Below, one piece after another: positions 2,896 through 51,417 of a stretch of DNA of 52,158 nucleotides (within the stretch, counting starts at the first letter, position 1; each line of letters starts with the position of its first letter). The notes under the pieces are model-generated. The model was given only the letters and a program-made list of their open reading frames with translations, ran no database searches and had not been told where the DNA came from. The DNA is from an uncultured bacterium (GTDB taxonomy: Bacteria > Bacillota_I > Bacilli_A > RF39 > UBA660): assembly GCA_946611605.1 (NCBI GenBank), contig CAMODU010000002.1:1-52158 (forward strand). Reading direction: 5' to 3'. The position numbers and the translations under genes were made by a program.

Positions 2896-3486
2896 ATGAA
2901 AAAGAAAAGTGGAATGAGATCAGGAATAGTAGTATTAGTATTATTACTAGCAGTAGGTTTCGCTGCAGTTACTACTCAATTAGTAATTAACGGAACTATT
3001 AACATAGGAGCAAACTCAGCTGATTTTCAACAAAACGTAATCTTCAAAAGTGCTACTCATACTGGAGCTACACAATTAGATGGTGAAACAGCTGGTACTG
3101 CAACTATCTCTGCTGATGGTAAATCAATTACTTATAGTACTCAAGTATTAGATAATATTGGCGAAACTGCAACATTAACTTATACTATCCAAAATAATTC
3201 ACAATATGGTGCTTCATTAGGACAATTAAAATGTTCTTGGGGATCAACATACGATGAATCAACTGCAGCTGCTTCATTAACTGACAATGAATATGTTAAT
3301 GTAGTTGCTACAAACGGATTAAATGGTACTACTTTAGCTAAAGGTGCTGTTACTGATACAACTAATATATCTGCAGCAGATACTGTAGTTGTAACTCAAA
3401 AGAAATCTTATGCTGGTGATGCAACTAATACATCACATACTTATACTTTCACTTGCCAAATGACTGCTACTGCAACAGAAGCATAA
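2896..3486 (+). CDS. Small secreted protein (196 aa), the stand-alone copy of a roughly 160-aa N-terminal module; candidate substrate of the adjacent SipW-type peptidase
   Basis: RBS is AAAGGAAGAGAG. The N-terminus MKKKSGMRSGIVVLVLLLAVGFA|AVTTQLVING has a basic n-region, an h-region and small residues at -3/-1 (G-F-A). The mature part is Thr/Ala/Asn-rich and looks beta-rich (ATLTYTIQNNSQYG, HTYTFTCQMT). It aligns along its whole length with residues 1-166 of the 30059 protein and 1-162 of the 38518 protein. Confidence 0.8.
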   Translation: MKKKSGMRSGIVVLVLLLAVGFAAVTTQLVINGTINIGANSADFQQNVIFKSATHTGATQLDGETAGTATISADGKSITYSTQVLDNIGETATLTYTIQNNSQYGASLGQLKCSWGSTYDESTAAASLTDNEYVNVVATNGLNGTTLAKGAVTDTTNISAADTVVVTQKKSYAGDATNTSHTYTFTCQMTATATEA

Positions 3487-3551: not shown

Positions 3552-4685
3552 ATGAAGAATATTTCTAAGATATTGTTAAATATTATTCTTATTATCACCT
3601 TATCTATTAATATTTTTAATAAGTTATATGATAATAAGATAGTTATAATAGCTTTATTAATATATTTAGGTATAAGCTATGCAATGAATGGATATAGAAG
3701 ACCTAATAAAAGAGATTTACTAACTACAACATTAGTAATATTCTTAGGTACTTTTTTAACTATATCATCATTCTATTTCATGGGTACATTTTCAGAATTT
3801 AGTAGAAATTACTCATTTATTTTTTATAAATATCTTAAACCATCAATATGGATAAGTGTATTTATAATTGTAATATTAACTGAAATTATTAGATATATAA
3901 CTTGTACAGGCCCTAAAGGGAGTAAATTAACTACAAGAATTACATATATAAGTCTATTTATTATATTCTTATTATTAGACTTATGTTTATCTAAGAAAGT
4001 CTTAAATGTAAGTAGTTTTAATAATATGTATGAGTTCTTTGCACTTACTTTATGTGCGAGTCTTACTAAGAATATATTTTTAATGTGGGTAACACGTAAA
4101 AACGGTTATATGCCATGTTTATTGTATAGACTGATAATAGATTTATATGTGTACTTTTTGCCTATTACGCCAAAGGCTAATATGCTTATTCAAGCATGTA
4201 TGTTTATGTTATTACCATTTATATTATATAAGGTAATAGATGGGTTAAAAGTCGAAAGAGAAATGCCTAAAGCATCAGATATAAGAAAGAGAAGCTGGGA
4301 TCGTATAGAAACAGTTATCTTATTAATTATATTTATTATACTTGCAGGTTTAGTATCAAGAGAATTTAAATATTCTATGATAGCTGTTGGATCTGGAAGT
4401 ATGACAGGTACAGTTAATAAAGGTGATGCTATTATATATGAAAGATATAATGGGCAAATATTACATGAAGGCGATATTATTGTATTTAAGATAGATAATA
4501 CATTAATAGTACATAGAATCTACAAGAAATTCTTCCTTGGTGATGAATATGCATACATGACTAAGGGTGATGCAAACCAATCAGTTGATAATTGGATTGT
4601 AGAAAGTAATATGGTTGTTGGTCAAGTTAAAAAAAGAGTTAAATATATAGCATGGCCATCAGTATGGATAAACGAAAATTATTAA
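3552..4685 (+). CDS. Fusion protein: roughly 8-TM N-terminal membrane domain plus a C-terminal ER/archaeal-type (SipW-like) signal peptidase I domain
   Basis: RBS is AAAGGTGAT. Residues 1-230 are almost entirely hydrophobic helices. A basic loop (KVEREMPKASDIRKRSWDR) and an anchor helix (ETVILLIIFIILAGLVS) follow. The catalytic domain has AVGSGSMTGTVNKGDAIIY, GDIIVFK, LIVHRI and MTKGDANQSVD. These match the SGSM(E)P / HR / TKGD(N)N boxes of B. subtilis SipW (Ser-His type). Confidence 0.85.
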   Translation: MKNISKILLNIILIITLSINIFNKLYDNKIVIIALLIYLGISYAMNGYRRPNKRDLLTTTLVIFLGTFLTISSFYFMGTFSEFSRNYSFIFYKYLKPSIWISVFIIVILTEIIRYITCTGPKGSKLTTRITYISLFIIFLLLDLCLSKKVLNVSSFNNMYEFFALTLCASLTKNIFLMWVTRKNGYMPCLLYRLIIDLYVYFLPITPKANMLIQACMFMLLPFILYKVIDGLKVEREMPKASDIRKRSWDRIETVILLIIFIILAGLVSREFKYSMIAVGSGSMTGTVNKGDAIIYERYNGQILHEGDIIVFKIDNTLIVHRIYKKFFLGDEYAYMTKGDANQSVDNWIVESNMVVGQVKKRVKYIAWPSVWINENY

Positions 4686-4707: not shown

Positions 4708-5928
4708 ATGAGGGAACGTAATGTTGAACTTCCTTTACTTAAAGGCAAACCAAAAGAAAAATATATTCCAATGAGTGTTGTAATTGGAGTAATAGTTTTC
4801 TTAGCACTAGTATTAGTTGCTTCTTTTGCATTTACTTTTAAGGGAACATATAAAGTTCATTATTCGGAAAAATCTAACATAGATTATAAAGTATATTTAA
4901 AGGAGAATTCAGATTATCCTGAGAAATACTTAGGTAAAAATAGAAGATATATTGCATCTTTAATTAAGAATATTGATACTGACTTCGATTATACATTTAA
5001 GATTGATGAAAAGATTGATCTTAAATATACATATTATGTTGTAGCTAAATTAGAGGTAAATGATTCTCAAGGTACTAACATATTTGAAAAAGAAGAATTA
5101 TTAACTTCTAAGAAGTCTAACAATACTGATAAAGATACTTTCAAAGTTCATGAAGATGTTCAAATTGACTATGCTAAGTTTAATGCTATGGCTACTGAAT
5201 TTATAGATAAATATAAGTTAACAGCAAATAGTAAATTAACTGTATCATTAATAGTTGATGTTGAAGGAAAACATACAGACTTTGATAAACAATTATCTGA
5301 TAAAGAAGTTATTAGTTTAAACATTCCATTAACAGAAAAGACAATTGATATTGAAATGGATTATAATTTAACTAATTCAGTAGATCAAACATTACAACAA
5401 AGATCTACAATATTAAATAATAAACCATTATTATTCATAACAATATTTATATCATTTATTGATATATTTGCAATTATATATGTTATTTACTGGGTAGTAG
5501 TAAATAGAAGCCCTGAAACATTATATAATAAGAAATTAGATAAGATATTAAAAGATTATAATAGATACATATCTGAAACTATCATAACTGAAAGAGTTGA
5601 AGATATGATGGTTACTAGATCATTAAGAATTGAAGTAATTAAGAAGTTCGAAGATTTATTAGATATAAGAGATTCATTAAATAAACCAATCTTATATCAT
5701 GAAGAAAGACCTAATCAAGAAGCAGTATTCTACATCTTAACTGATAGAATAGGTTACTTATATGTAATGAGAGCTGAAGATTTTGTGAAGAAATCTAAGA
5801 AAGCTAAAAATGAAGAAGTTGTAGAAGAAAAGAAAGTTGTTAAAAAAGAAGAATTAATAGCTGATCCTGTTATTGAGGTTAAAAAGAAAAGATCTAGACA
5901 TCAAAATAAAGATAGATTTAGAAAATAA
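4708..5928 (+). CDS. Two-TM membrane protein of unknown function (extracytoplasmic roughly 190-aa domain between the TMs, cytoplasmic C-domain with a Lys-rich tail); third gene of the peptidase cassette
   Basis: RBS is GAAAGGGA, 22 nt after the peptidase stop. TM1 is IPMSVVIGVIVFLALVLVASFAFTF and TM2 is LLFITIFISFIDIFAIIYVIYWVVV. The C-terminal tail is KKSKKAKNEEVVEEKKVVKKEE...KKKRSRHQNKDRFRK. I recognise no catalytic motif. Confidence 0.75.
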   Translation: MRERNVELPLLKGKPKEKYIPMSVVIGVIVFLALVLVASFAFTFKGTYKVHYSEKSNIDYKVYLKENSDYPEKYLGKNRRYIASLIKNIDTDFDYTFKIDEKIDLKYTYYVVAKLEVNDSQGTNIFEKEELLTSKKSNNTDKDTFKVHEDVQIDYAKFNAMATEFIDKYKLTANSKLTVSLIVDVEGKHTDFDKQLSDKEVISLNIPLTEKTIDIEMDYNLTNSVDQTLQQRSTILNNKPLLFITIFISFIDIFAIIYVIYWVVVNRSPETLYNKKLDKILKDYNRYISETIITERVEDMMVTRSLRIEVIKKFEDLLDIRDSLNKPILYHEERPNQEAVFYILTDRIGYLYVMRAEDFVKKSKKAKNEEVVEEKKVVKKEELIADPVIEVKKKRSRHQNKDRFRK

Positions 5929-12974: not shown

Positions 12975-14750
12975 ATGAATAAAAATAAATATTTATTAGT
13001 ATTTATTCTTTTACTATGCCTAATTCCTAATGTAGCTAAAGCTACTGATTGGTGTGTTATCAATGGTACAACTGTTAGAGTAAGAGATGCTGCATCTACT
13101 TCAGGTAATAAATTAGGAACATATAATACAGGAGATAAGTTTGTATTAAAGACTAGACAAATATTTGCTGATAAAGGTGGAGGATGCGAATCAGGATATT
13201 GGTATCAAATAGATCATAATGGTGCAACTGGCTATGTTTGTACTGCATTTGCAATTATAGAATCTGATACACCTGTAGTTATTACTGATGAAGCAAAAAC
13301 ACAATGCGAATCTGAATTAAAATCTAAAGGCTTCCCTCAAGTATATTGGAACGCTTTATGTAATTTAAAAGCTAAATATCCAAATTGGGAATTTAATGCT
13401 ATAGATACTTTAATAGACTTTCCTTCTGCAGTAGCTGGTGAATCTTGTAAAGGCTCTATACGTGCATCTGAAACTAATATAAACAAAGGATTTACAGATT
13501 CTACATGTGGAAAAAAATATGATACAGGGTATACTGGAGCGTCATCTACTGCTACAGCATATTATATGAACCCTTTAAACTTCTTAAACGAAAAGAATAT
13601 TTTTATGTTTGAATCAAATTATACAAATAATAATCTATTAGGATATTATGCTAATGCATCGAAAAGTATAATATCTCCTTCAACTTATTTTGTTCAGTTT
13701 ATTCCAAATGTATATACTTATATAGCTAATGCGTCTAATGCGTCTAATGTGGCAGCTTCTGCTATATCTGCTCGTATAAAACAAGAAATGGGAAGTGGAG
13801 ATTTAGGAAAAACAGTAGCTCCAGATAATACAAGATTGTTTTCATGCTTGTCTGGTAATTATTCGACTAGATATCCAAATACTGTAGCTTCAATAGGTGA
13901 TGTGAATAATTATTATAATTTCTTTAATATAGCTGCAACCGATGGTTCGGATGTCACACAAAAAGCATTAATATATGCTAGAAATCATGGCTGGGGCGGA
14001 ACTGGTAATCAAGACAATGATAGACAAACAGCTGTAACAGGTGGTGCTCAGTGGATTTATAAATGGTATACAAATGCAGGCCAACAGACTATTTATTTTA
14101 ATAAATTTAATGTTAATCCTAAATCGTCGTCATCTAAATTTTCTCATCAATACATGACAAATGTGGATGCTCCATCCTCAGAATCTATACTTGTTTATAA
14201 TGGTTATTCAAGTTCAGGTGCTTTATCTGCTAATCACATATTTTATATTCCAGTATATAGTAATTTAGATGCTTCTATAAATAATACTCCAGGTGGTGCT
14301 ACAGGTGATACTAATAACTCTAATACAGGATTACAACCTTCAACAATGGTTGTATCTGCTGGTTTGAATATATCTGGTTCTGCTGTATTTGGAATTAAAA
14401 GTAATACGTCTATAGTTGATTTAAAAGGTAGAATACAATCTCAAGGTGGTACAATTAATATTTATTCCGGTAATAATTTAATAAATGATGGTATAGTTGG
14501 AACAGGCATGGTAATGAAAATTGCATCATCAACTGGTAATGCCGAATATTCTATTGTAATTAAAGGCGATACCTCAGGTGATGGGTTGGTTAATGCGTTG
14601 GATTTACTACAAATAAAAAAATCAATACTTGGGCAGAAAAAAATAGAAGGCGTTTATTATGCGGCTGCTGACACATCAAGTGATGGTACGGTTAATGCTT
14701 TAGATTTATTACAAGTTAAAAAGAGCTTATTAGGACAAAAGGAGTTGTAG
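12975..14750 (+). CDS. Secreted SH3b + glucosaminidase(GH73)-like peptidoglycan hydrolase with a C-terminal type-I dockerin
   Basis: Signal peptide is MNKNKYLLVFILLLCLIPNVAKA. The SH3b-like segment is VRVRDAASTSGNKLGTYNTGDKFVL...GYWYQIDHNGATGYV. GH73-like boxes are IKQEMGSG, NNYYNFFNI, GAQWIY and SHQYMTN. The C-terminal duplicated dockerin segment is GDTSGDGLVNALDLLQIKKSILG ... ADTSSDGTVNALDLLQVKKSLLG (nt 14565-14747). Confidence 0.7.
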   Translation: MNKNKYLLVFILLLCLIPNVAKATDWCVINGTTVRVRDAASTSGNKLGTYNTGDKFVLKTRQIFADKGGGCESGYWYQIDHNGATGYVCTAFAIIESDTPVVITDEAKTQCESELKSKGFPQVYWNALCNLKAKYPNWEFNAIDTLIDFPSAVAGESCKGSIRASETNINKGFTDSTCGKKYDTGYTGASSTATAYYMNPLNFLNEKNIFMFESNYTNNNLLGYYANASKSIISPSTYFVQFIPNVYTYIANASNASNVAASAISARIKQEMGSGDLGKTVAPDNTRLFSCLSGNYSTRYPNTVASIGDVNNYYNFFNIAATDGSDVTQKALIYARNHGWGGTGNQDNDRQTAVTGGAQWIYKWYTNAGQQTIYFNKFNVNPKSSSSKFSHQYMTNVDAPSSESILVYNGYSSSGALSANHIFYIPVYSNLDASINNTPGGATGDTNNSNTGLQPSTMVVSAGLNISGSAVFGIKSNTSIVDLKGRIQSQGGTINIYSGNNLINDGIVGTGMVMKIASSTGNAEYSIVIKGDTSGDGLVNALDLLQIKKSILGQKKIEGVYYAAADTSSDGTVNALDLLQVKKSLLGQKEL

Positions 14751-14753
14751 AAT

Positions 14754-16382
14754 GTGAAGAATTTAAAGAGATTAATAATATTAATGTTATTAATAATACC
14801 AGGTATAGCTTCAGCTGCATCTAGTAGTATATCTGTTAGTTCAGCAAATACAGGTGTTGTTGGTAACAATTTAAATGTAACTGTTACGGTATCTTCGTCA
14901 GCACCTTTAGGTTCATGGCAATTTACTGTATCATATGATAGAAGTTATTTAACATTAAGTAGTGTAAGTAATACAGATGATTGTGGAACTAGTGCAAACT
15001 GTGCTGGTAATGCTAATAATAGTTCTACTAAATCAAAATCCTATAATTTTACTTTTAAAGTGTTGAAATCAGGATCATCTACAATTAGAATAACATCAGC
15101 AGATGTATTTGGTTGGGATGAAAATAGAATGTCAGTTAATAATGGTTCTAGAACTATTACTTGTAAAACTCAAGCAGAAATTGAAGCATCATATTCTCCA
15201 AATGCATATCTTAAATCTATTACAGTAGGTGATTATACATTAGATCCTGCATTTGATAAAGAAACTAAAGAATATAATGTAGAAGTACCAAATGATGTAG
15301 AAAAGGTAACTGTATCAGCTACTAAAGAAGATGGAAATGCTACAATAACTGGTACAGGTGAAAAAGAATTACAAGAAGGAAATAATAAAATTGAAATAGT
15401 ATGTACTGCTCAAAAGGGAAATAGTTTAACATATATAGTTAATATTAATAGAAAAGAATTAAATCCTATTAAAGTAACTATAGATGGTAAAGAATTTGGT
15501 ATTGTTAGAAAGAAAGATTTATTACCTGAATTAATAGGTTTTAGTGAAGATACTACAACATATGAAGATACTGAAATACCTGCTTTATATAATGATGATT
15601 TAACATATAAATTAATAGGTGTTAAAGATGATGAAGGTAATGTATATACTTATCTTTATGATGAAGGTGCTAAAACTATAAGAGGTAGATATATTCAATT
15701 ATTATCTGGTGATTTAGCAATTACTCCTGGTAACTTTAATGAAAAGATTAAAGGATTTGAAACTAAGGAATTAGATTTAGATGGATTTAAAGTAGCATCT
15801 GTTGCTATATCAGATAAACAATATATTATAAAGGGTATTAATCTAGTTACTAAAGAAGAAGGAACTTATTTATATGATGTAGATACTAAGATGTTTATAC
15901 CATTTGATTTAACTAACATTTATAATATAAATAAAAAGATTAAAGTATATAAAATAGTTATTATTCTTTTCTGTGTAATAGTTCTTCTATTAGCAGGTTT
16001 AAATATTTTTAAGAAAGATAATAAGAAAGATAAAAAGAAGAAACCTATAATAGATGAATTTAAAGAAATTGAACCTGAAGAAATAAAAGTAGAAGAAATA
16101 AAAGAAGAACCTAAAGAAGAATTAAAGGTTGAAGAAGAAACTATTTCTTTAGATGATGAAGAAGATAAGAAGAAAAAGAAAAAAGAAGATAAGAGAAAGA
16201 AGAAAGCAGAAAAGAAAAGATTAAAAGAATTAGAAAGAGAAGAACAAGAGGAAGAAGTTGTTGAAGAAGAAGTTAAGGAAGAAAAGGTAGTCGATGATGA
16301 TGAAGTAGATGATCCTTTAAATGATGAAGATGATTTCATGGACTTCTGGGAAACAATGGAAATCAAAAAGATAAAGAAATAG
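14754..16382 (+). CDS. Membrane-anchored protein: cohesin-like domain, cadherin-like beta-sandwich domain, TM, highly charged cytoplasmic tail
   Basis: GTG start lies 3 nt after the upstream stop, with AAGGAG 9 nt upstream. Signal peptide is LIILMLLIIPGIASA. The cohesin-like segment is NLNVTVTVSSSAPLGSWQFTVSYDRSYLTLSSV...YNFTFKVLKSGSSTIRITS. The cadherin-like module is YLKSITVGDYTLDPAFDKETKEYNVEVPNDVEKVTVSA...YIVNINR. The TM is IVIILFCVIVLLLAGLNIF (residues 401-418), followed by a 124-aa K/E/D tail. Confidence 0.65.
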   Translation: MKNLKRLIILMLLIIPGIASAASSSISVSSANTGVVGNNLNVTVTVSSSAPLGSWQFTVSYDRSYLTLSSVSNTDDCGTSANCAGNANNSSTKSKSYNFTFKVLKSGSSTIRITSADVFGWDENRMSVNNGSRTITCKTQAEIEASYSPNAYLKSITVGDYTLDPAFDKETKEYNVEVPNDVEKVTVSATKEDGNATITGTGEKELQEGNNKIEIVCTAQKGNSLTYIVNINRKELNPIKVTIDGKEFGIVRKKDLLPELIGFSEDTTTYEDTEIPALYNDDLTYKLIGVKDDEGNVYTYLYDEGAKTIRGRYIQLLSGDLAITPGNFNEKIKGFETKELDLDGFKVASVAISDKQYIIKGINLVTKEEGTYLYDVDTKMFIPFDLTNIYNINKKIKVYKIVIILFCVIVLLLAGLNIFKKDNKKDKKKKPIIDEFKEIEPEEIKVEEIKEEPKEELKVEEETISLDDEEDKKKKKKEDKRKKKAEKKRLKELEREEQEEEVVEEEVKEEKVVDDDEVDDPLNDEDDFMDFWETMEIKKIKK

Positions 16383-30058: not shown

Positions 30059-33000
30059 ATGAACAAGCATTTGAGAGCGGGTTTGCTTGTATTAGTTTTG
30101 TTTTTATCAATAGGGTTTGCTACAGTTACAACAAACCTATTTATGAATTCTAATGCAACAATCGCATATAACCAAAATGATTTTCAAGTTATATTTACTA
30201 AAGCTGTGGCTAATAAAGAAGGAACAGCTTCTATTTCTGATGACGGAAAATCTATTACATATACTACACATGAACTTGTTGAATTAAATGATCAATCAAT
30301 ATTAGATTATAAAATAACTAATAATTCATCTCAATATGATGCAGATATAAATATATCAGTTAAAGTATATGATGAAAACAATAATGAAATAGATCTTAAT
30401 GAATATTTTACTATTGAAGAAACAATTCAACCTACTAATACTTTAGAAGCAAGAACATCTACTGATGGTCAATTAACTGTTACTTTAACTAAACAACCAA
30501 CAGAATCTCATACTTATAGATTTGAAATAGTATATGATATTGATACAATTGAAAGAGCATCAGCTGCTGATGGGACTGTTATTCCTAATGGAATAGAGGT
30601 AACATTTGATGCTAATGGTGGAGTAGCTTTAGATAATAATACTAAGATGGTTATGTATGATGCTTTATATGGTGATCTACCTGAAACTACTGCTGTTAAT
30701 TTAGCTTTTGAAGGATGGTATACAGATCCTGTAGCAGGTGAAAAAGTTACAGCTGATACTGTAGTATCAAATGCTGAACCTCATACATTATATGCACATT
30801 ATACAGATCCTGTAGCTGTATACAATACATATGGATACAATACATTACAAAAAGCTATTAATGCAGTACCAAAGAATGGTATAGAATCTACTGTAGATTT
30901 GTTAAAAAGTAGTAATGAAGATGTAAATGTATTTAGTAATCAAAACATTATATTAAATATGAATAATAATACCTTAACTAATACTGATATAGAAGGTACA
31001 TATTTATTTACTAATGAAGGAGAATTAACTGTTAATAACGGAATTATTAATGCATCAACTAGAGGTATTAATAATAGTAATAAATTAATATTAGAAAACA
31101 TGACTATTGATACTTCTTTAGTTGCTATATATAATGCAGCTGATTCAAATTTAAATATTAAATCAGGAAGTTATAATAGTGGCCAAAATAGTGTTATAAA
31201 TGATGGTGTTGTTTCGATTAATGGCGGTAATTTTACTAATAGTGGGGGGACATATCCAATTATCTTTAATTATGCAACATTAGATTTTAATGATGGTACA
31301 CTTAATTCTACTATTAGTAGAGGATTGTATACGTCTGCTACTGGAACTACTAATATAACTGGTGGAACAATAACTGGTGAAACAACTGCTAAAAATTTAG
31401 TTTATAATATGGGTGTAACTAATATAAGTGGTGGTAATATTACAGCTGGTTCTTCTGGCTCATATACCGTATTTAATGGAACTACTGGAACTATGACAGT
31501 TTCAGGTGGTTCATATAGCAACACTAATGCTACTATATTTATGAATCAAGGAACTATGGATGTTTTACCAACAACTGTGATTGAAAATTCTCCTAAAACT
31601 ATTTTTGCTGCTAATGGTAGTAGTGCAAAAACAACAATTAAAGGTGGTACATATAGTGCAAGTTCATCAATTATTTATCCACAAGGATCATCTACTGTAA
31701 TTGTTGAAGATGGTACATATACATCATCTACAAATGTTGCAAATTGTAATGGTGGTAATTTGACAATTGAAGGTGGAAATTTTACTGCCACAGCATCTAA
31801 TTATCCTGGTGTTGTACAACAAGCTAATGGATCAATAACTATTAATGGTGGAACAATTAATACTCAATCATATGCTTTGTGGGCAAAAGGTAAAATTACT
31901 CTTAATGGAGGAACAGTAAAATCTGAAAAGAATTATACTGTTAATGTAGAGTCGACTGGTACATTTGAATTTAATGGAGGTACTCTTGAAGCAACTTCAA
32001 CCTCAAGCGTTATGATTAACTCCAATGGTATTACTAACATAAATGGAGGAAACTTTAATTATGTTGATAATGGTAAAATAGCTATTATAAATAGAGCAAC
32101 TGGAACAATGACTATTAATGAAGGTGCAGATATAACTATTGATGATACTAATGCTTTATATAATTATGGAACATTTAATTTAAACGGTGGTACAATTAGT
32201 ACAAATAATAATTATCCAGTAATTACTACTCAAAGTGGTGGTACTACTAATATAAATAGTGGAACTATTAATGGTAATAGTACTAATGCTATTGTTAATA
32301 CTGCTGGTACAACTAATATAAAAGGTGGGTCAATCAATTCTAATACTTCCTCAGCTATTGATGTAAAAGCTGATACAGTTAATATTACTGGAGGAACAAT
32401 TTCATCAACTCGTACTGGTATTTATGCTGAAGGTGGAACTACAAATATATCTGGTGGAACTATTACTAGCTCAGAAAGTAATGCTATTAGTTCTTCAGCA
32501 GGATCTACAGTTAATGTGTCTGGTGGGCAAATAACAAATGAGTCTACTTCAGCTGTCGTATATAATAAAGGTACAACAACTATAACTGGTGGTTCAATTA
32601 ATAGTGAAACCGCTTATCATACAATATATAATGAAGCTGATTCATTACTTAATATTAAGGATAATGCCGACATTAAATCGGTTAACAATACCGCTGTGAC
32701 AAATTATGGAACAGTCATGATGTATGGCGGAAATTTATATTCTAGTTCTGACACAAAAGTAACATTCTCTCAAGGTAATACAGGTGGATTAATAATGTCT
32801 GGTGGTACTATAACAACTAAAAAAGGTAATGCTATTAATATATTAGAAGGTGGAGCTGCCAATATAACTGGTGGACTTGCATCAAGTGAGGAAACTGGTA
32901 CAGCACCTGTTATTTATTCATCAGGAACACTTACAATATCCGATAGTCCTACTATTTCATCTTTAGGAAATAATAGATTAATAACCATATCAAGTACTGG

Positions 33001-43798: not shown

Positions 43799-43904
43799 AT
43801 AACGCAATTCAAGGGGATTTGGTTGATTATTGGTAATTTTAAGGGGTTGAAATTATTGTTAATTATATTTCTTTGAATTAAAAGAATAAAAGGGTGTGGT
43901 TGAT

Positions 43905-45521
43905 ATGATAGAATCTAAACAATCTATGGTATCAAGAAATTCTAATCATAATCCTGAAGTTAAGAAACAACTCAAAGAAATTAAGAAATTACAAAAAGAA
44001 TTAGAACAAAAGAAAAAGGACTATGAAAAGAAAGTGGCTAAAGACAAAGAGAGAACTCTTAAAGTCATAGCTGCAAAAGAAGCTCAAGTAACTAAAGAAA
44101 AGCTTAGAAGAAGAAAAGAACTATCTAAAAAGATAGAAGCTAAACTTAAAGAAGAAGCTAAAGAAAGAAAGTTACAAGAGAAGAAAGCAATTAAAGAATC
44201 ATTGATTCAAGAAAAAGCAAGATTAAAAGAAGCTCAAGAAAAAGCAAGATTAGCTGAAGCTTATAAAAGACAAAAAGAAGCTGAAGAAATCAAAAAGGCT
44301 AAATTACTTGAAGCAGAAAGAAAACATATCTTAGCTGAACAAGCTAAACAAGAAAGATATGAACAAAGACTTGCGAACAAAGAAGCTAGAAGATTAAAAG
44401 TAATAGCTGCTAAAGAATCAAGATATAAGAAAATGATTGCTGGTAAGGATTTCTTGAAAGGTAAGATTAAGAATCTTAAAGTATATGCCAAAAAGGCAGC
44501 TGTTGTTGGATTACTAGCAGGTTCTATAGTTTTAGTTTATAAATCTAATATTATTCCAAATACTATATCAGATCTTAAACAAAAGAAACTAATAGAACAA
44601 TCAATCGAGGATAATAAGGAATCTGAAATTGAGATGACAGTACAACCTGTTGAACCAATTGAAGAGAAAGTCGAAGAAGAGGAAGAAGAAATAGAAGTTG
44701 AGGTTGAACAACCACATGAAATTATTTCAACTGAATTATACGACGATGGATTTGAATTTGACGAAACTGTCACACCAGAAATGTTAAATACAATTAATCC
44801 GATATTATCCGATAACACATGTTGGATTTGTATACCTGGTACAAACATCAATTATCCAGTAGTACATCCAAGTATTAATAACATTGACCAAGTCGAAGGT
44901 TTAAGAAGTGATATTGAAAAATCAAATTTAGATGATGATGTCTATATGAATCAATATTTCTTACGTAAAAACTTAACTGGAGACAAGTCATCAGATGGAA
45001 CTTTATTCTTAGACATTTATAATAATACTTTAAATCGTCCTAGTGGTGAATTAAGTGATATGAATGTTATATATGGTCATAAGATGAAATCAGGTGCAAT
45101 GTTTAGTGATTTACACAAATGGAAATACGATGCAACAGGAACTTACAATGCTGAACATCCATATGGTATTATCTATACCAATGATGGATATGGTTATAAA
45201 GTAACATTTATAACTTCTAGATTAATATCTGGAGAATCTAACTCTATATTACATTTGAATAACTTTGAAAGTTATGAAGAAAAATGTGAATATATACAAT
45301 CAATAATGGATGAAGCCAAAGAAAATGGATGGTTCACATTAGATGATTATTCAGTTGAAGAAGACGATAAATTCCTAAGTTTAATCGCTTGTTCGTATGA
45401 AGCTGATAATATGAGATATCAATTAATTGGTGTCTTAGATAAAATCAAAGTAAGAGATACAAATTTAGCTTATAATGAAAATGGCTATTATGTAGAAGAA
45501 AGTTCTACATTACATAGATAG
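43905..45521 (+). CDS. Class-B-like sortase with a roughly 195-aa Lys/Glu-rich cytoplasmic N-terminal extension
   Basis: ORF track gives 43896, a GTG inside GGGTGTGG; ATG 43905 is preferred. About 195 aa of K/E/A coiled-coil-like sequence contain the internal repeat R(T/R)LKVIAAKE(A/S). The TM is AAVVGLLAGSIVLVY and an acidic linker follows. The sortase domain has CWICIPGTNINYPVV, DGTLFLD, NVIYGHKMKSGAMFSDL (His), LSLIACS (Cys) and NMRYQLIG (Arg). Confidence 0.8.
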   Translation: MIESKQSMVSRNSNHNPEVKKQLKEIKKLQKELEQKKKDYEKKVAKDKERTLKVIAAKEAQVTKEKLRRRKELSKKIEAKLKEEAKERKLQEKKAIKESLIQEKARLKEAQEKARLAEAYKRQKEAEEIKKAKLLEAERKHILAEQAKQERYEQRLANKEARRLKVIAAKESRYKKMIAGKDFLKGKIKNLKVYAKKAAVVGLLAGSIVLVYKSNIIPNTISDLKQKKLIEQSIEDNKESEIEMTVQPVEPIEEKVEEEEEEIEVEVEQPHEIISTELYDDGFEFDETVTPEMLNTINPILSDNTCWICIPGTNINYPVVHPSINNIDQVEGLRSDIEKSNLDDDVYMNQYFLRKNLTGDKSSDGTLFLDIYNNTLNRPSGELSDMNVIYGHKMKSGAMFSDLHKWKYDATGTYNAEHPYGIIYTNDGYGYKVTFITSRLISGESNSILHLNNFESYEEKCEYIQSIMDEAKENGWFTLDDYSVEEDDKFLSLIACSYEADNMRYQLIGVLDKIKVRDTNLAYNENGYYVEESSTLHR

Positions 45522-48612: not shown

Positions 48613-51417
48613 ATGAAGAACGATTATGCAAGATTTAAACAACTTACTTTTGATGTTCTTTTAGATGAATTATCTAATGACATTGATAATCTATATAAAT
48701 CATATAGTTTTCTTGACATCTCAAAAGAAGAGTTTAATAGTATAATAAATCCAGCCGTTCAAGAAGCTTTTTCTAAATATAATAATAAAGAAAAATTGGA
48801 TTATAAAACATTCTTTGTTAATGTGATAAAACATGAGATAAAGGTATTCTTTATTAAGTTTCAACAAAATGAAAGATATAGAGACGTAATAAATAATTAT
48901 GTAAAAGCTACATTAAAAAAAGCAAATAGTATAAATGATATTATACATGAAATGACTAAGTTCTCAAGATTTATAGCTGAAAGCCAAATTATGGTAGGCC
49001 CAGATGTTTTGACCTTCTTGATCGAAAATAACGATATTATCCACAATTATATGATAATGATATTTAACAAGTATCAGTCAAAAATAGAAGATGGGACTTA
49101 TATAGATATATTTGAAGATGTTACCTTAACATCATTAATTGAAACATATGCATCCATGAATGATATAGAAATTAAAATGGATTTGGATGTAGAAAATGTA
49201 AGTGTATATGTAAGTGATTCAGAAGATAAATCTTATACAGATTCAACTAAATTATATTTAAAGGAAATAGGTAAAATTCCTTTGTTAAAATTAGATGAAG
49301 AAGTTAGATATGGTTATAGAATGATGGAGGGAGATCCAATTGCTAAGAAGAAACTAGTTGAAGCAAATCTTAGATTAGTTGTATCTATTGCCAAAAGATA
49401 TGTAGGACGTGGTTTATTATTTCAAGATTTAATAGAAGAAGGTAATCTTGGATTAATGAAAGCAGTAGAAGCATTTGATGTACGAAAGGGATACAAGTTT
49501 TCAACATATGCAACATGGTGGATTAGACAAAGTATTACCCGTTCTATAGCTGACCATGGACGTAACATAAGAATACCTGTACATATGGTTGAAAAAGTAA
49601 ATAAGTTTAATCGTGTAGTAGCTGATATAGCAAAAAAACTAGGAAGAGAACCAACTAATGAAGATATTCAAGCGGCTACTGGACTATCTAGAGAAACTAT
49701 AGATTATTTATTTAAGTTAGGCGCCGATACGGTATCAATTCATACTCAAATAGGTGATGAAGAAGAATCAGAATTAATTGATTTTATACCTGATGATCAA
49801 CATGTTGTTGAAGATGCAGCCTTGTTGAATAAAATGTCAAGTGATATGAAAGAAGCATTACTTGAATCTAAACTAACTGAGAAAGAATTAAAAGTAATAA
49901 TATTAAGATTTGGATTAGATACAGGAACAGGTAGAACTCTTGAAGAAGTAGGTAAAATATTTAAAGTTACACGTGAAAGAATTAGGCAAATAGAAGCTAA
50001 AGCTTTAAGAAAATTAAAGAGTAGTCCTAAATTTAGAAATAAAATGAAAGGATATATAGATGAAGATTCTATTCCTGATGATGTATTAATTGAAAAGAAG
50101 AAGAAAACTAGAAAAAAAGGCGAGTTTTCTGATATGAAATTATTAAATGATTATAAACTAGATACCGTTGATTTTAATAGATCTGGAAAAGGAAGAAAAA
50201 AAGGTAAAGTAAGAGGAGATAAATACGAAGGTGATTTATATCAAGATGATAAACCTAGAGTATCATCTTATAAAAAAGTAAAACCTAAGTCAGAATCTTT
50301 AATACAAGTAGAAGTTAAAAAAGATATTAAAGATATTGTACTTGAAAACAAAACAAAAGAACCAAAACCTAAAACATATATTAGACGTGATATTGATATT
50401 ACTCCTGAAGTAATTGATGCATTAGATAAATGTAGTTTAAGTAATAATATGATGGCTGCATTTAAACTAATACATGGTATAGATGATGGTGTAAAAAAGA
50501 CATTAAGAGAAGTATCTAGTATCATGGGTATCTCTTATGAAAGAGTAAGACAGTTAAATAATAAAGCAATTGATAAAATAAATAATTATTTATCTAATAA
50601 AGATAAAGGGGATATTAAACCAGATATGGATTTAATAATAGATGAAGATATTAAAGAACTTGAAGATTCAAAAGAAGAATTAAAAGATATAGTTGATGAA
50701 ATTAACATGGTCAAATCTATAAGAGAAATACTTAAAGGAAAGAAAGAAGGAACAAGGATGGGAAGAAAGAAAAAGGAAGTAACAGAAGATATGCATAAAG
50801 TAATAGATGCTAAACCATCAAGAAAGAAGTTTGAGAATATATATACTTACTATGAAGCAACTCCTGAAATAATAGATGAAGCATTAACACATTTATCTTT
50901 AGAAGAATTACAATTATTAAAGAAGAAATTTGGTGGCAATTTTGAAAATCCAACATTAACTAAATTATCTAAAGAAGAAAATGCTAAAGTATATGGAAGT
51001 CTTATAAAAAAATTAGAAACTGCTATTAGAAAGATTCAATTAAAGAATGTAGTTCCTGAAAAGAAAGATAATATAGTTGAAATGCCAATTCAAAAAACAG
51101 AAGAACAACTACTTGATGAAGTAGAAGATAATATTCAAACTCATGAAGAAGAAGGATTATTTATTCCATTAGAATCTGATTATATGAGATATCTGTTATC
51201 ATATGCATATGATGAATTATATGATAAATTAACATTACAAGAAGGTTTAATGTTATCTTTAATGGTAGGTAAATATGATAATATAATGCATACTAACGAA
51301 GAAATTAAAGAATCACTTAATTTAGATGAATTAGGTTATTATGATGTATTTAGAAGTATTATTAATAAATATCAAGATGTAATCAACAATGTAAACAATC
51401 ATAACAAAACTAAATAA
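48613..51417 (+). CDS. sigA: Group-1 (SigA/RpoD-type) sigma factor with a long N-terminal region and a roughly 450-aa C-terminal extension
   Basis: Residues 210-470 are a complete SigA core. Region 1.2 is [16 protein letters not shown]. Region 2 is [42 protein letters not shown]. Region 3 is [13 protein letters not shown]. Region 4.2 is [30 protein letters not shown]. subtilis SigA would end about 15 aa later, but this ORF continues to residue 934. Confidence 0.85.

Follow-up and report, generated by a model that had tools for sequence, protein, structure and literature searches.

Previously, a dedicated signal peptidase and a DUF5305 protein have been recognized as the marks of archaeal Tafi and AbpX loci, for which cryo-electron microscopy (cryo-EM) reveals donation of the N-terminal strand (PMC12337348; bioRxiv 10.64898/2026.01.04.697558). 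In Haloarcula, the Tat-fimbriae cluster encodes the pilins TafA/C/E, the signal peptidase TafD, and the DUF5305 protein TafG, and deletion of tafD leaves TafA unprocessed and the cells without filaments (PMC11821415). The Tafi of Natrinema assemble by strand donation, as seen by cryo-EM (PMC12337348). AbpX-like loci occur in archaea and bacteria and carry a dedicated signal peptidase I with ten transmembrane (TM) segments, a DUF5305 protein, and minor subunits; donor-strand complementation is the predicted mode by which the AbpX tip proteins join the assembly, monomer predictions leave the donor strand without structure, and the subunit combines a Cys pair with an isoelectric point (pI) near 4 (bioRxiv 10.64898/2026.01.04.697558). 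In Bacillus subtilis, the new N terminus of TasA is the donor strand, and TapA shares a strand with TasA (PMC9674648, PMC10151520). The present study describes a cassette of this kind in a 52,158-nucleotide stretch of DNA (hereafter, the window; positions 1 to 52,158 of contig CAMODU010000002.1, assembly GCA_946611605.1) from an uncultured bacterium of the RF39 lineage UBA660. The cassette encodes a small secreted protein, a fused S26 signal peptidase, and a DUF5305-family protein; the small protein consists of a module of approximately 165 residues that recurs at the N termini of two large proteins encoded elsewhere in the window.

The system resembles that of AbpX (Pyrodictium abyssi and homologues) in its small, acidic, predictedly secreted beta-sandwich subunit with a Cys pair, in its many-TM signal peptidase I of the TIGR02228 type (ten TM segments there, approximately nine here), in its DUF5305 protein with a TM segment, a beta-ectodomain, a second TM segment, and a cytoplasmic alpha/beta domain, and in having larger proteins (tip or minor subunits) with the same fold as the subunit. 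In contrast to the module, AbpX has an aromatic residue at +2 and an acidic residue at +4 of its donor strand as well as Ca2+ sites, and no relationship between the two is detectable at the sequence level. Furthermore, one or two proteins of the operon play the part of larger subunits in AbpX, whereas up to ~20 large handle-bearing proteins, mostly dispersed, occur per genome here. With Tafi, the cassette shares a dedicated S26 peptidase, a DUF5305 protein, and pilin genes (putative here); the Tafi pilins work by strand donation and have minor subunits and adhesin-like partners (PMC11821415, PMC12337348). However, Tafi belong to archaea and are mostly Tat substrates, whereas the bacterial module family has a Lys-rich Sec-type signal and no sequence similarity to Tafi pilins; TafD has four TM segments and a C-terminal Ig-like domain, whereas the peptidase here has an N-terminal polytopic domain of ~8 TM segments. 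The TasA-TapA-SipW system places a secreted jelly-roll/beta-sandwich subunit beside a dedicated archaeal-type signal peptidase, much as the cassette does with its modeled beta-sandwich protein, and a conserved motif straddles its cleavage site, as is predicted here (PMC9674648, PMC10151520). In contrast to the present cassette, SipW has 2 TM segments, the tapA operon is without DUF5305, and TasA is not a handle on large adhesins. The TIGR04088 junction is of the type ..GGTxAxFxD, whereas that of the module reads GFA↓AV(S/T)T (the arrow marks the predicted cleavage site).

We give somewhat better than even chances to the reading, drawn by analogy, of a novel TasA-superfamily-like system that employs one and the same handle on numerous adhesins scattered over the genome. 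The module would be the common handle of a TasA/Tafi/AbpX-like surface-fiber system of uncultured low-GC gut Bacilli. Sec would export each module-bearing protein, and the cassette's own archaeal/endoplasmic reticulum (ER)-type S26 peptidase, with its 9-TM body, would remove the short signal at G-F-A↓, the DUF5305 protein being its probable accessory subunit. Cleavage would free a conserved amphipathic segment, A-V-(S/T)-T-x-L-x-I-N-G, which would then serve as a donor strand by inserting into a neighboring module's beta-sandwich. The bulk subunit would be the small protein of 196 residues, made up of the module and nothing else. Since the same module stands before adhesin-type domains, we propose that the peptidase also cuts the 1366- and 869-residue proteins and that these become part of the polymer, sit at its end, or decorate it. 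The steps of cleavage, strand donation, and co-assembly draw on analogy and on weak structural matches; the homology of the module, the conservation of junction and cassette, the exclusively N-terminal position, the diversity of cargo, and the absence of other anchors are observations.

The module and its cassette

The small module-only protein (196 residues, 2896 to 3486, plus strand), the putative major subunit, has 114 homologues, mostly of 170 to 220 residues. BLASTP aligned its residues 1 to 185 with residues 1 to 155 of the 1366-residue protein (30059 to 34159, plus strand) at 37% identity (E = 1e-20), and its residues 1 to 108 with the 869-residue protein (38518 to 41127, plus strand) at 39% identity (E = 3e-15). 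The N termini of the two large proteins are 38% identical to each other over residues 1 to 174 and 1 to 170, respectively (E = 8e-27). The module spans residues 1 to 166 of the 1366-residue protein (30059 to 30556, plus strand) and residues 1 to 162 of the 869-residue protein (38518 to 39003, plus strand), where the junction reads GFA↓SVTTNL. Translation of the latter protein truly starts with the ATG at 38518 rather than with the GTG at 38509; the family members P0147 and P0219 begin MNKRTKIY.

The original prediction had claimed an end-to-end homology between the small protein and the start of the 1366-residue protein, with a set of shared blocks and with the end of the small protein coinciding with the module boundary in the large one, and had called for an alignment of the three modules and a hidden Markov model (HMM). 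These claims were borne out. The MAFFT alignment contains the blocks VLxL..GFAxVTTxL, DF, ITYxT, LxYxxxNxSxQY, and the terminal E, and it pairs the end of the small protein, E195-A196, with E165-R166 of the 1366-residue protein. With an HMM of 29 members, the six-frame translation of the window holds exactly three module copies, at 2896 (E = 5e-82), 30059 (E = 8e-58), and 38518 (E = 1e-54); the next match has an E-value of 0.4. The predicted separation of 24 kb holds as a distance from the end of the cassette, but the module starts at 2896 and 30059 lie ~27 kb apart.

The gene order, i.e., small gene, fused S26 peptidase, DUF5305 gene, is the same in 19/19 cassette loci from many lineages of metagenome-assembled genomes (MAGs), as judged on flanks of up to 10 kb. 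These loci comprise 14 with the small protein as best match and 5 reached from DUF5305 proteins in Hadza-type lineages, whose small proteins read GFAAITT and therefore escaped the DNA pattern of the genome scan. The co-occurrence of module and peptidase was examined locally, on these flanks, and the small proteins of locus L024 have no peptidase nearby. A large module gene directly follows the DUF5305 gene in L011 and L013 and lies within 2 kb of it in L005 and L014.

One could suppose that there is no functional link at all, i.e., that a duplicated signal peptide and Ig-like domain has spread by shuffling, that the proximity of the peptidase is incidental, and that the processing of the whole set falls to the housekeeping signal peptidase. 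Both large genes of the window indeed lie 24 to 33 kb from the cassette, among housekeeping genes, and L024 lacks a peptidase within 10 kb. However, the gene order is kept between lineages with only 40 to 50% protein identity, the junction is invariant over hundreds of clusters, and fused members occur as the fourth gene of the cassette. We consider such an unlinked origin very improbable.

The fused peptidase (377 residues, 3552 to 4685, plus strand) matches TIGR02228 (sigpep_I_arch) with 74.9 bits against a cutoff of 51.85. According to hydropathy, its residues 1 to 248 form a polytopic membrane domain of ~8 TM segments, which is followed by a further TM segment (249 to 272) and an extracytoplasmic S26 domain. 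The latter carries the motifs GSGSM at 280, HRI at 321, and GDAN at 339, and S283 (of GSGSM), H321-R322, and G339-D340-x-N342 are invariant in 20 homologues. These features place the protein in the archaeal/ER-type signal peptidase I class (TIGR02228; S26B, with a Ser-His dyad). In contrast, it scores 51.3 bits against a cutoff of 190 with the Bacillus SipW equivalog (NF046067), from which it also differs in architecture (377 residues, ~9 TM segments). Homologues of 377 to 380 residues number in the hundreds. In the N-terminal domain (residues 1 to 248; 3552 to 4295), invariant polar residues (E111, R114, S170, N174, D197, Y199, Y201, and N210) lie in or near TM segments, and no family match was found for this domain. 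A second activity or substrate docking is possible.

The DUF5305-family protein (406 residues, 4708 to 5928, plus strand) has an AlphaFold2 (AF2) model with a mean confidence (pLDDT) of 77, in which a TM segment (15 to 41), a beta-rich ectodomain (42 to 236), a second TM segment (239 to 265), and a cytoplasmic alpha/beta domain (269 to 384) follow one another. No PF17231 match of the window copy itself was reported by hmmscan; its membership follows from its homologues, its layout, and its constant position directly after the peptidase. Two of these homologues (77% and 54% identity) match PF17231 with 53 and 57 bits (cutoff 29), and most of the homologues listed carry the family. As a paralogue of the module that might act as an acceptor, the ectodomain was rejected: hhalign aligned the TM regions only (probability 7%), and Foldseek returned generic beta-sandwiches.

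A scan for promoters and terminators around the cassette did no better than on shuffled sequence. In the window, as in L001, the cassette is immediately preceded by a gene for UDP-galactopyranose mutase (GLF; 1641 to 2783 in the window). Since L081 to L085 have tRNA synthetase genes in its place, this association looks incidental.

Conservation of the signal-peptide junction

By the -3/-1 rule, the predicted signal peptide of the small protein comprises residues 1 to 23 (2896 to 2964, plus strand), with cleavage between A23 and A24. It consists of a Lys/Arg-rich n-region, an h-region of 10 to 12 residues, and G-F-A at -3 to -1. The segment after the junction, AVTTQLVINGTINIGAN (residues 24 to 40; 2965 to 3015, plus strand), is a putative N-terminal donor strand, as its conservation pattern suggests. 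In the 1366-residue protein, the predicted signal comprises residues 1 to 21 (GFA at 19 to 21), and the junction lies between A21 and T22 and continues as VTTNL.

Conservation was computed over 150 family representatives at no more than 50% identity. While the n-region is variable, though Lys/Arg-rich, and the h-region has 10 to 12 residues in 144/150 (96%), the best conserved stretch of the whole family is G-F-A↓A-V-(S/T)-T-x-L-x-I-N-G. G21 is found in 144 of the 150 representatives, F22 in 148, A23 in 147, T27 in 137, and L29 in 148, and the remaining columns read A/S24, V/I25, S/T26, T/N28, x30, I31, N32, and G33. The information content is 4.0 to 4.2 bits at G21, F22, A23, and L29, 3.3 to 3.8 bits at V25, T27, I31, N32, and G33, and 1.7 to 2.0 bits at positions 30 and 34 to 36; F44 and F50 are the sole other positions that reach the level of the junction. 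This bears out the view of the original prediction that conservation peaks directly behind the predicted cleavage site. V25, T27, L29, and I31 are kept, and positions 28, 30, and 34 to 36 vary, giving an i/i+2 pattern. Such alternate-residue conservation past the junction is to be expected of a beta-strand with one face buried.

Small residues at -3 and -1 together with a short h-region are hallmarks of signal peptidase I substrates. The family shows these features, i.e., a charged n-region, a short h-region, and small residues at -3 (G in 144/150) and -1 (A in 147/150), and it does so with a constancy at these two positions that supports the view of a junction too conserved for a generic Sec signal. 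Since the protein encoded at 118 to 1626 has an ordinary signal, VHA↓DS, the GFA↓xVTT motif is specific to the module family. The proposed dedicated recognition or cleavage site gains support from the dedicated S26 peptidase beside the small gene in all 19 cassette loci, although the site itself is a prediction from sequence. The n-regions are Lys-rich and have no RR (twin-arginine) motif, unlike the Tat signal of haloarchaeal Tafi pilins. A type IV pilin-like signal was rejected because the hydrophobic stretch precedes G-F-A and the G↓F...E(+5) pattern is missing.

On the other hand, the stretch without charges that begins in the n-region and continues past GFA has a median length of 29 residues, which could span a membrane, and the Kyte-Doolittle scale flags residues 5 to 31 of the small protein as a single hydrophobic segment. 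Residues ~10 to 32 might then be an uncleaved signal anchor, i.e., a TM helix, which would make these proteins type II membrane proteins with the module as a membrane-proximal stalk; GFAxVTTxL would be a helix-packing motif that contacts, e.g., the polytopic domain of the peptidase or the DUF5305 protein. Because the large proteins have no other anchor, a retained N-terminal one would explain their cell association simply. However, an h-region of 10 to 12 residues in 96% of the members and invariantly small residues at -3/-1 are features of a cleaved signal, the residues that follow are polar (T/S-T-T/N ... N-G), and i/i+2 is not a helical periodicity. In addition, AF2 models no helix there, and a dedicated peptidase gene is always adjacent. 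We regard a retained anchor as quite improbable.

Predicted fold, possible strand exchange, and the large module proteins

The AF2 model of the small protein (pLDDT 87.3) is a beta-sandwich over residues 41 to 194. Residues 1 to 40 have no secondary structure in the monomer and are modeled with lower confidence (pLDDT 62 for residues 21 to 30 and 85 for 31 to 40); the lack of structure parallels what is reported for the AbpX donor strand (bioRxiv 10.64898/2026.01.04.697558). Among the top 50 Foldseek matches of the module model in the PDB, ~26 are donor-strand/strand-exchange or ZP filament subunits, including CfaB (7.6e-4), the TasA fiber (7e-3), the Saci_0406 thread, ABP (probability 0.96), PapA/K/G, Fim, and uromodulin. 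The DUF5305 model, which served as a beta-sandwich control, has none of these filament subunits in its top 50. No PDB sequence matched the module at E ≤ 10, by single sequence or by profile, and no relevant Pfam or NCBIfam match was found for the three window proteins and the 29 members.

The small protein has a pair of Cys residues, C113 and C187. Both are present in 124/150 representatives, both are absent in 19/150, and one only is present in 7/150; this co-occurrence points to a disulfide and thereby to an extracytoplasmic location. The pI of the three window modules is 4.05 to 4.33. The Cys pair and the acidic pI fit an extracytoplasmic protein and parallel AbpX, the pair being present in the small protein and in neither of the large window proteins.

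A different account of the junction accepts the dedicated processing but not the polymer: GFA↓xVTT would be a cleavage or sorting signal for the 9-TM peptidase and DUF5305 protein, and the module would be a monomeric structural or docking domain (stalk, wall-binding, or receptor-docking). The small protein would be its stand-alone version, perhaps a competitor, a spacer, or an abundant coat protein. All evidence for dedicated processing applies equally to this account. Many paralogues per genome with one N-terminal domain recall the SLH or CWB2 wall-binding modules, the organism makes peptidoglycan, and the invariant E111, R114, D197, and N210 of the peptidase N-domain could serve a second function. 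However, the conservation exceeds the needs of a peptidase site, as it extends to +10 and then to F44 and F50 and has a strand-like periodicity; the PDB matches of the module are enriched in strand-exchange subunits; and hhalign finds no relation of the module to the DUF5305 ectodomain. Furthermore, the systems with DUF5305 and a dedicated signal peptidase that have been studied make strand-exchange filaments (PMC11821415, PMC12337348). A sorting signal without polymerization seems unlikely to us.

Several observations weigh against the favored reading of the module as the handle of a strand-exchange fiber. The Foldseek scores are weak (TM-scores of 0.2 to 0.4, E-values of ~1e-3 to 1e-1), and the match to the TasA fiber (8aur_A; E = 7e-3) has a TM-score of 0.21 to 0.24. 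Among the 29 members, none matches PF12389 (TasA/camelysin, Peptidase_M73) or DUF1102, the domain type of Sec-dependent relatives of Tafi pilins, even at E ≤ 1, and none matches the SipW-cognate signal TIGR04088 at E ≤ 1 (TIGR04087 to 04090 also gave none). The predicted mature N terminus, A-V-T-T-Q-L, has V/I at +2 in 148/150 representatives and T at +4 in 137/150, so the aromatic +2 and the acidic +4 of the TasA and AbpX donor strands are missing. The long uncharged run discussed above counts here as well.

A further point of this kind concerns the large proteins themselves. In the modules of both, the two conserved Cys are absent (the Cys columns of the 1366-residue protein read V/I), and the near-invariant N-G at residues 32 and 33 is replaced, by NS in the 1366-residue protein and by NS/NA across the two. 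Both belong to a 'TNL(I/V)xN..DF.V.F' subgroup that consists mostly of fused proteins. Given this divergence, the large proteins might not pair with the small subunit.

In the 1366-residue protein, the module is followed after ~14 residues by a Flg_new domain (residues 181 to 247; Pfam, 1.6e-11) and then by ~1070 residues of repeats. The repeats are rich in T/N/G/S/I and show periodicity at lags 22 to 24, 46, and 66 to 69, i.e., a period of ~23 residues. The beta-helix label that the original prediction gave to this protein finds indirect support in the composition and the period and in a sub-threshold Pfam match to the beta-helix family Cthe_2159 (1e-3); a PDB sequence search gave one marginal, uninformative match. 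A beta-helix is plausible. The 869-residue protein combines the module with BspA-type leucine-rich repeats (LRRs; Pfam LRR_5, 5e-84). Hydrophobic residues form a single segment in the former (4 to 25) and occur only at the N terminus in the latter (5 to 29, two overlapping windows); neither has a C-terminal anchor.

When 1.84 billion representatives were searched exhaustively with a profile, 2623 clusters matched at E ≤ 1e-3, and 373 did so at E ≤ 1e-30. The former number is an upper bound, since the profile (298 positions) includes part of a DUF6273-like extension from two longer members and may have collected extension-only matches; the best 150 of the 2623 matches all cover the module itself. 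In each of these 150 representatives (146 to 2180 residues long), the module starts within the first 27 residues. In length, 68 have fewer than 230 residues, 14 have 230 to 300, 41 have 300 to 500, 23 have 500 to 1000, and 4 are longer. The fused C-terminal domains are of the adhesin type: among 67 fused representatives, Flg_new occurs in 13, an ALK-type glycine-rich domain in 10, and DUF285 and DUF6273 in 6 each, and BspA LRR, Laminin_G, F5/8-C, and CarboxypepD_reg are found as well. Neither an LPXTG-like signal nor a true C-terminal TM segment occurs in any of the 68 fused representatives of at least 300 residues. A role of the module as the handle of the large proteins is consistent with this N-terminal-only position, with the diverse adhesin-type domains, with the lack of any other anchor, and with the place of some of their genes directly after DUF5305.

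Among species-representative genomes, only a few dozen MAGs have the family, which has undergone a strong expansion there. In the flanks that were sampled, 80 loci contain 127 module open reading frames (ORFs), often as tandem arrays, and single assemblies have up to 21, 18, 16, and 15 module ORFs in these flanks alone. At L024 (9920 to 11955), three tandem small module genes encode proteins of 210, 223, and 211 residues with unusually long K/T/S-rich n-regions, and two larger module genes follow them. At L007 (12968 to 13474, right after DUF5305) and L013 (19069 to 19533, at a greater distance downstream of the cassette), there are module-core proteins without the GFA↓xVTT junction (HMM E-values of ~1e-19 to 5e-20), which have hydrophobic N termini (..SFASIAIIVSLVEG.. 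and ..IGFFSSLIIIDSVIGG..). A frameshifted junction motif was looked for upstream of both variants, and none was found. They are candidates for membrane-anchored acceptor or terminator subunits.

A bolder extension of the fiber reading, which we put forward tentatively and hold to be possible rather than probable, is that one strand-exchange fiber serves as a universal display scaffold. The single small subunit made by the cassette would polymerize, and up to ~20 dispersed adhesin proteins, with beta-helix, LRR, Flg_new, DUF285, DUF6273, and other domains, would plug in after processing by one 9-TM peptidase/DUF5305 complex, the junction-less variants serving as membrane anchors. FimH, PapG, and CfaB of CFA/I offer a parallel to this model, in that fusion to a pilin-type domain lets an adhesin domain enter a strand-exchange polymer; the best Foldseek matches of the module also include CfaB and the Pap/Fim pilins. 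However, chaperone-usher systems are Gram-negative periplasmic machines in which the pilin domain is C-terminal to the lectin, whereas the handle here is N-terminal, with no chaperone or usher. The SLH, CWB2, and LPXTG/sortase systems likewise put one conserved module on many paralogous surface proteins per genome, but these are wall-bound or wall-linked without a dedicated signal peptidase, whereas the conserved element here includes the signal-peptide junction.

The cassette type is already known from publications of 2025 and 2026. The subunit family, as far as its sequence goes, is new, and the use of its handle on large proteins that are numerous in a genome and scattered over it goes further than earlier descriptions, in which the operon encodes one or two tip proteins. 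If the fiber reading is true, strand-exchange fibers of the TasA/Tafi/AbpX kind extend from Bacillus biofilms and archaea to a large group of uncultured gut Bacilli, and the principle has found a new use, in which a pilin-like module and a peptidase recognition site form a portable handle on many adhesin-type proteins. It would also assign a function to an unannotated family (2623 clusters as an upper bound), to DUF5305, and to many-TM signal peptidases, and it would explain the display of large surface proteins without LPXTG, SLH, or TM anchors. The display scaffold, if true, would be a sortase-independent, chaperone-free mounting of interchangeable adhesins in Gram-positive gut bacteria. Besides, the conserved junction provides a simple sequence tag for the surface-protein repertoire of such organisms in metagenomes.

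Genomic setting and other genes of the window

The window is core chromosome with a guanine-cytosine (GC) content of 27%, almost wholly coded on the plus strand, and encodes PolA, NrdD, an EzrA-like protein, TrpS, TyrS, RelA/SpoT, Fpg, MraY, and a sigma-70 factor; the presence of MraY indicates that the host makes peptidoglycan. Gut-metagenome contigs carry the same sequence as the window, and related loci occur only in MAGs of uncultured Bacilli, Erysipelotrichales, and 'Firmicutes CAG:582'. Five MAGs titled 'uncultured Muribaculaceae' (SRP287540; L003, L010, L011, L012, and L048) have a low-GC, Bacilli-type cassette and module genes, and these bins are probably mislabeled or contaminated. 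No relatives of the module turned up among viral contigs, and phage origin or carriage was rejected on this ground.

Upstream of the cassette, the 502-residue protein encoded at 118 to 1626, with the ordinary signal ..VHA↓DS, has a Cys-rich ectodomain, a TrbL-like membrane segment (weak match), and a low-complexity tail rich in Asn, in which NNNKN units recur. The gene at 43896 to 45521 encodes a 541-residue protein with a C-terminal sortase-B-like domain, which at 59 bits lies well below the cutoff of 154; a sortase signal is absent from all module proteins. The sigma-70 factor (48613 to 51417) has 934 residues, with regions 1.2 to 4 at residues 210 to 469, two region-4 stretches, and a C-terminal extension of ~465 residues without a Pfam match. 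At 12975 to 14750, a 591-residue protein combines SH3_3 with a C-terminal type I dockerin, and the directly following gene (14754 to 16382) encodes a 542-residue protein with a cohesin domain, a cadherin-like domain, and a polytopic membrane tail. Together, the two resemble a cohesin-dockerin pair anchored to the membrane, here in a genome of gut Bacilli.

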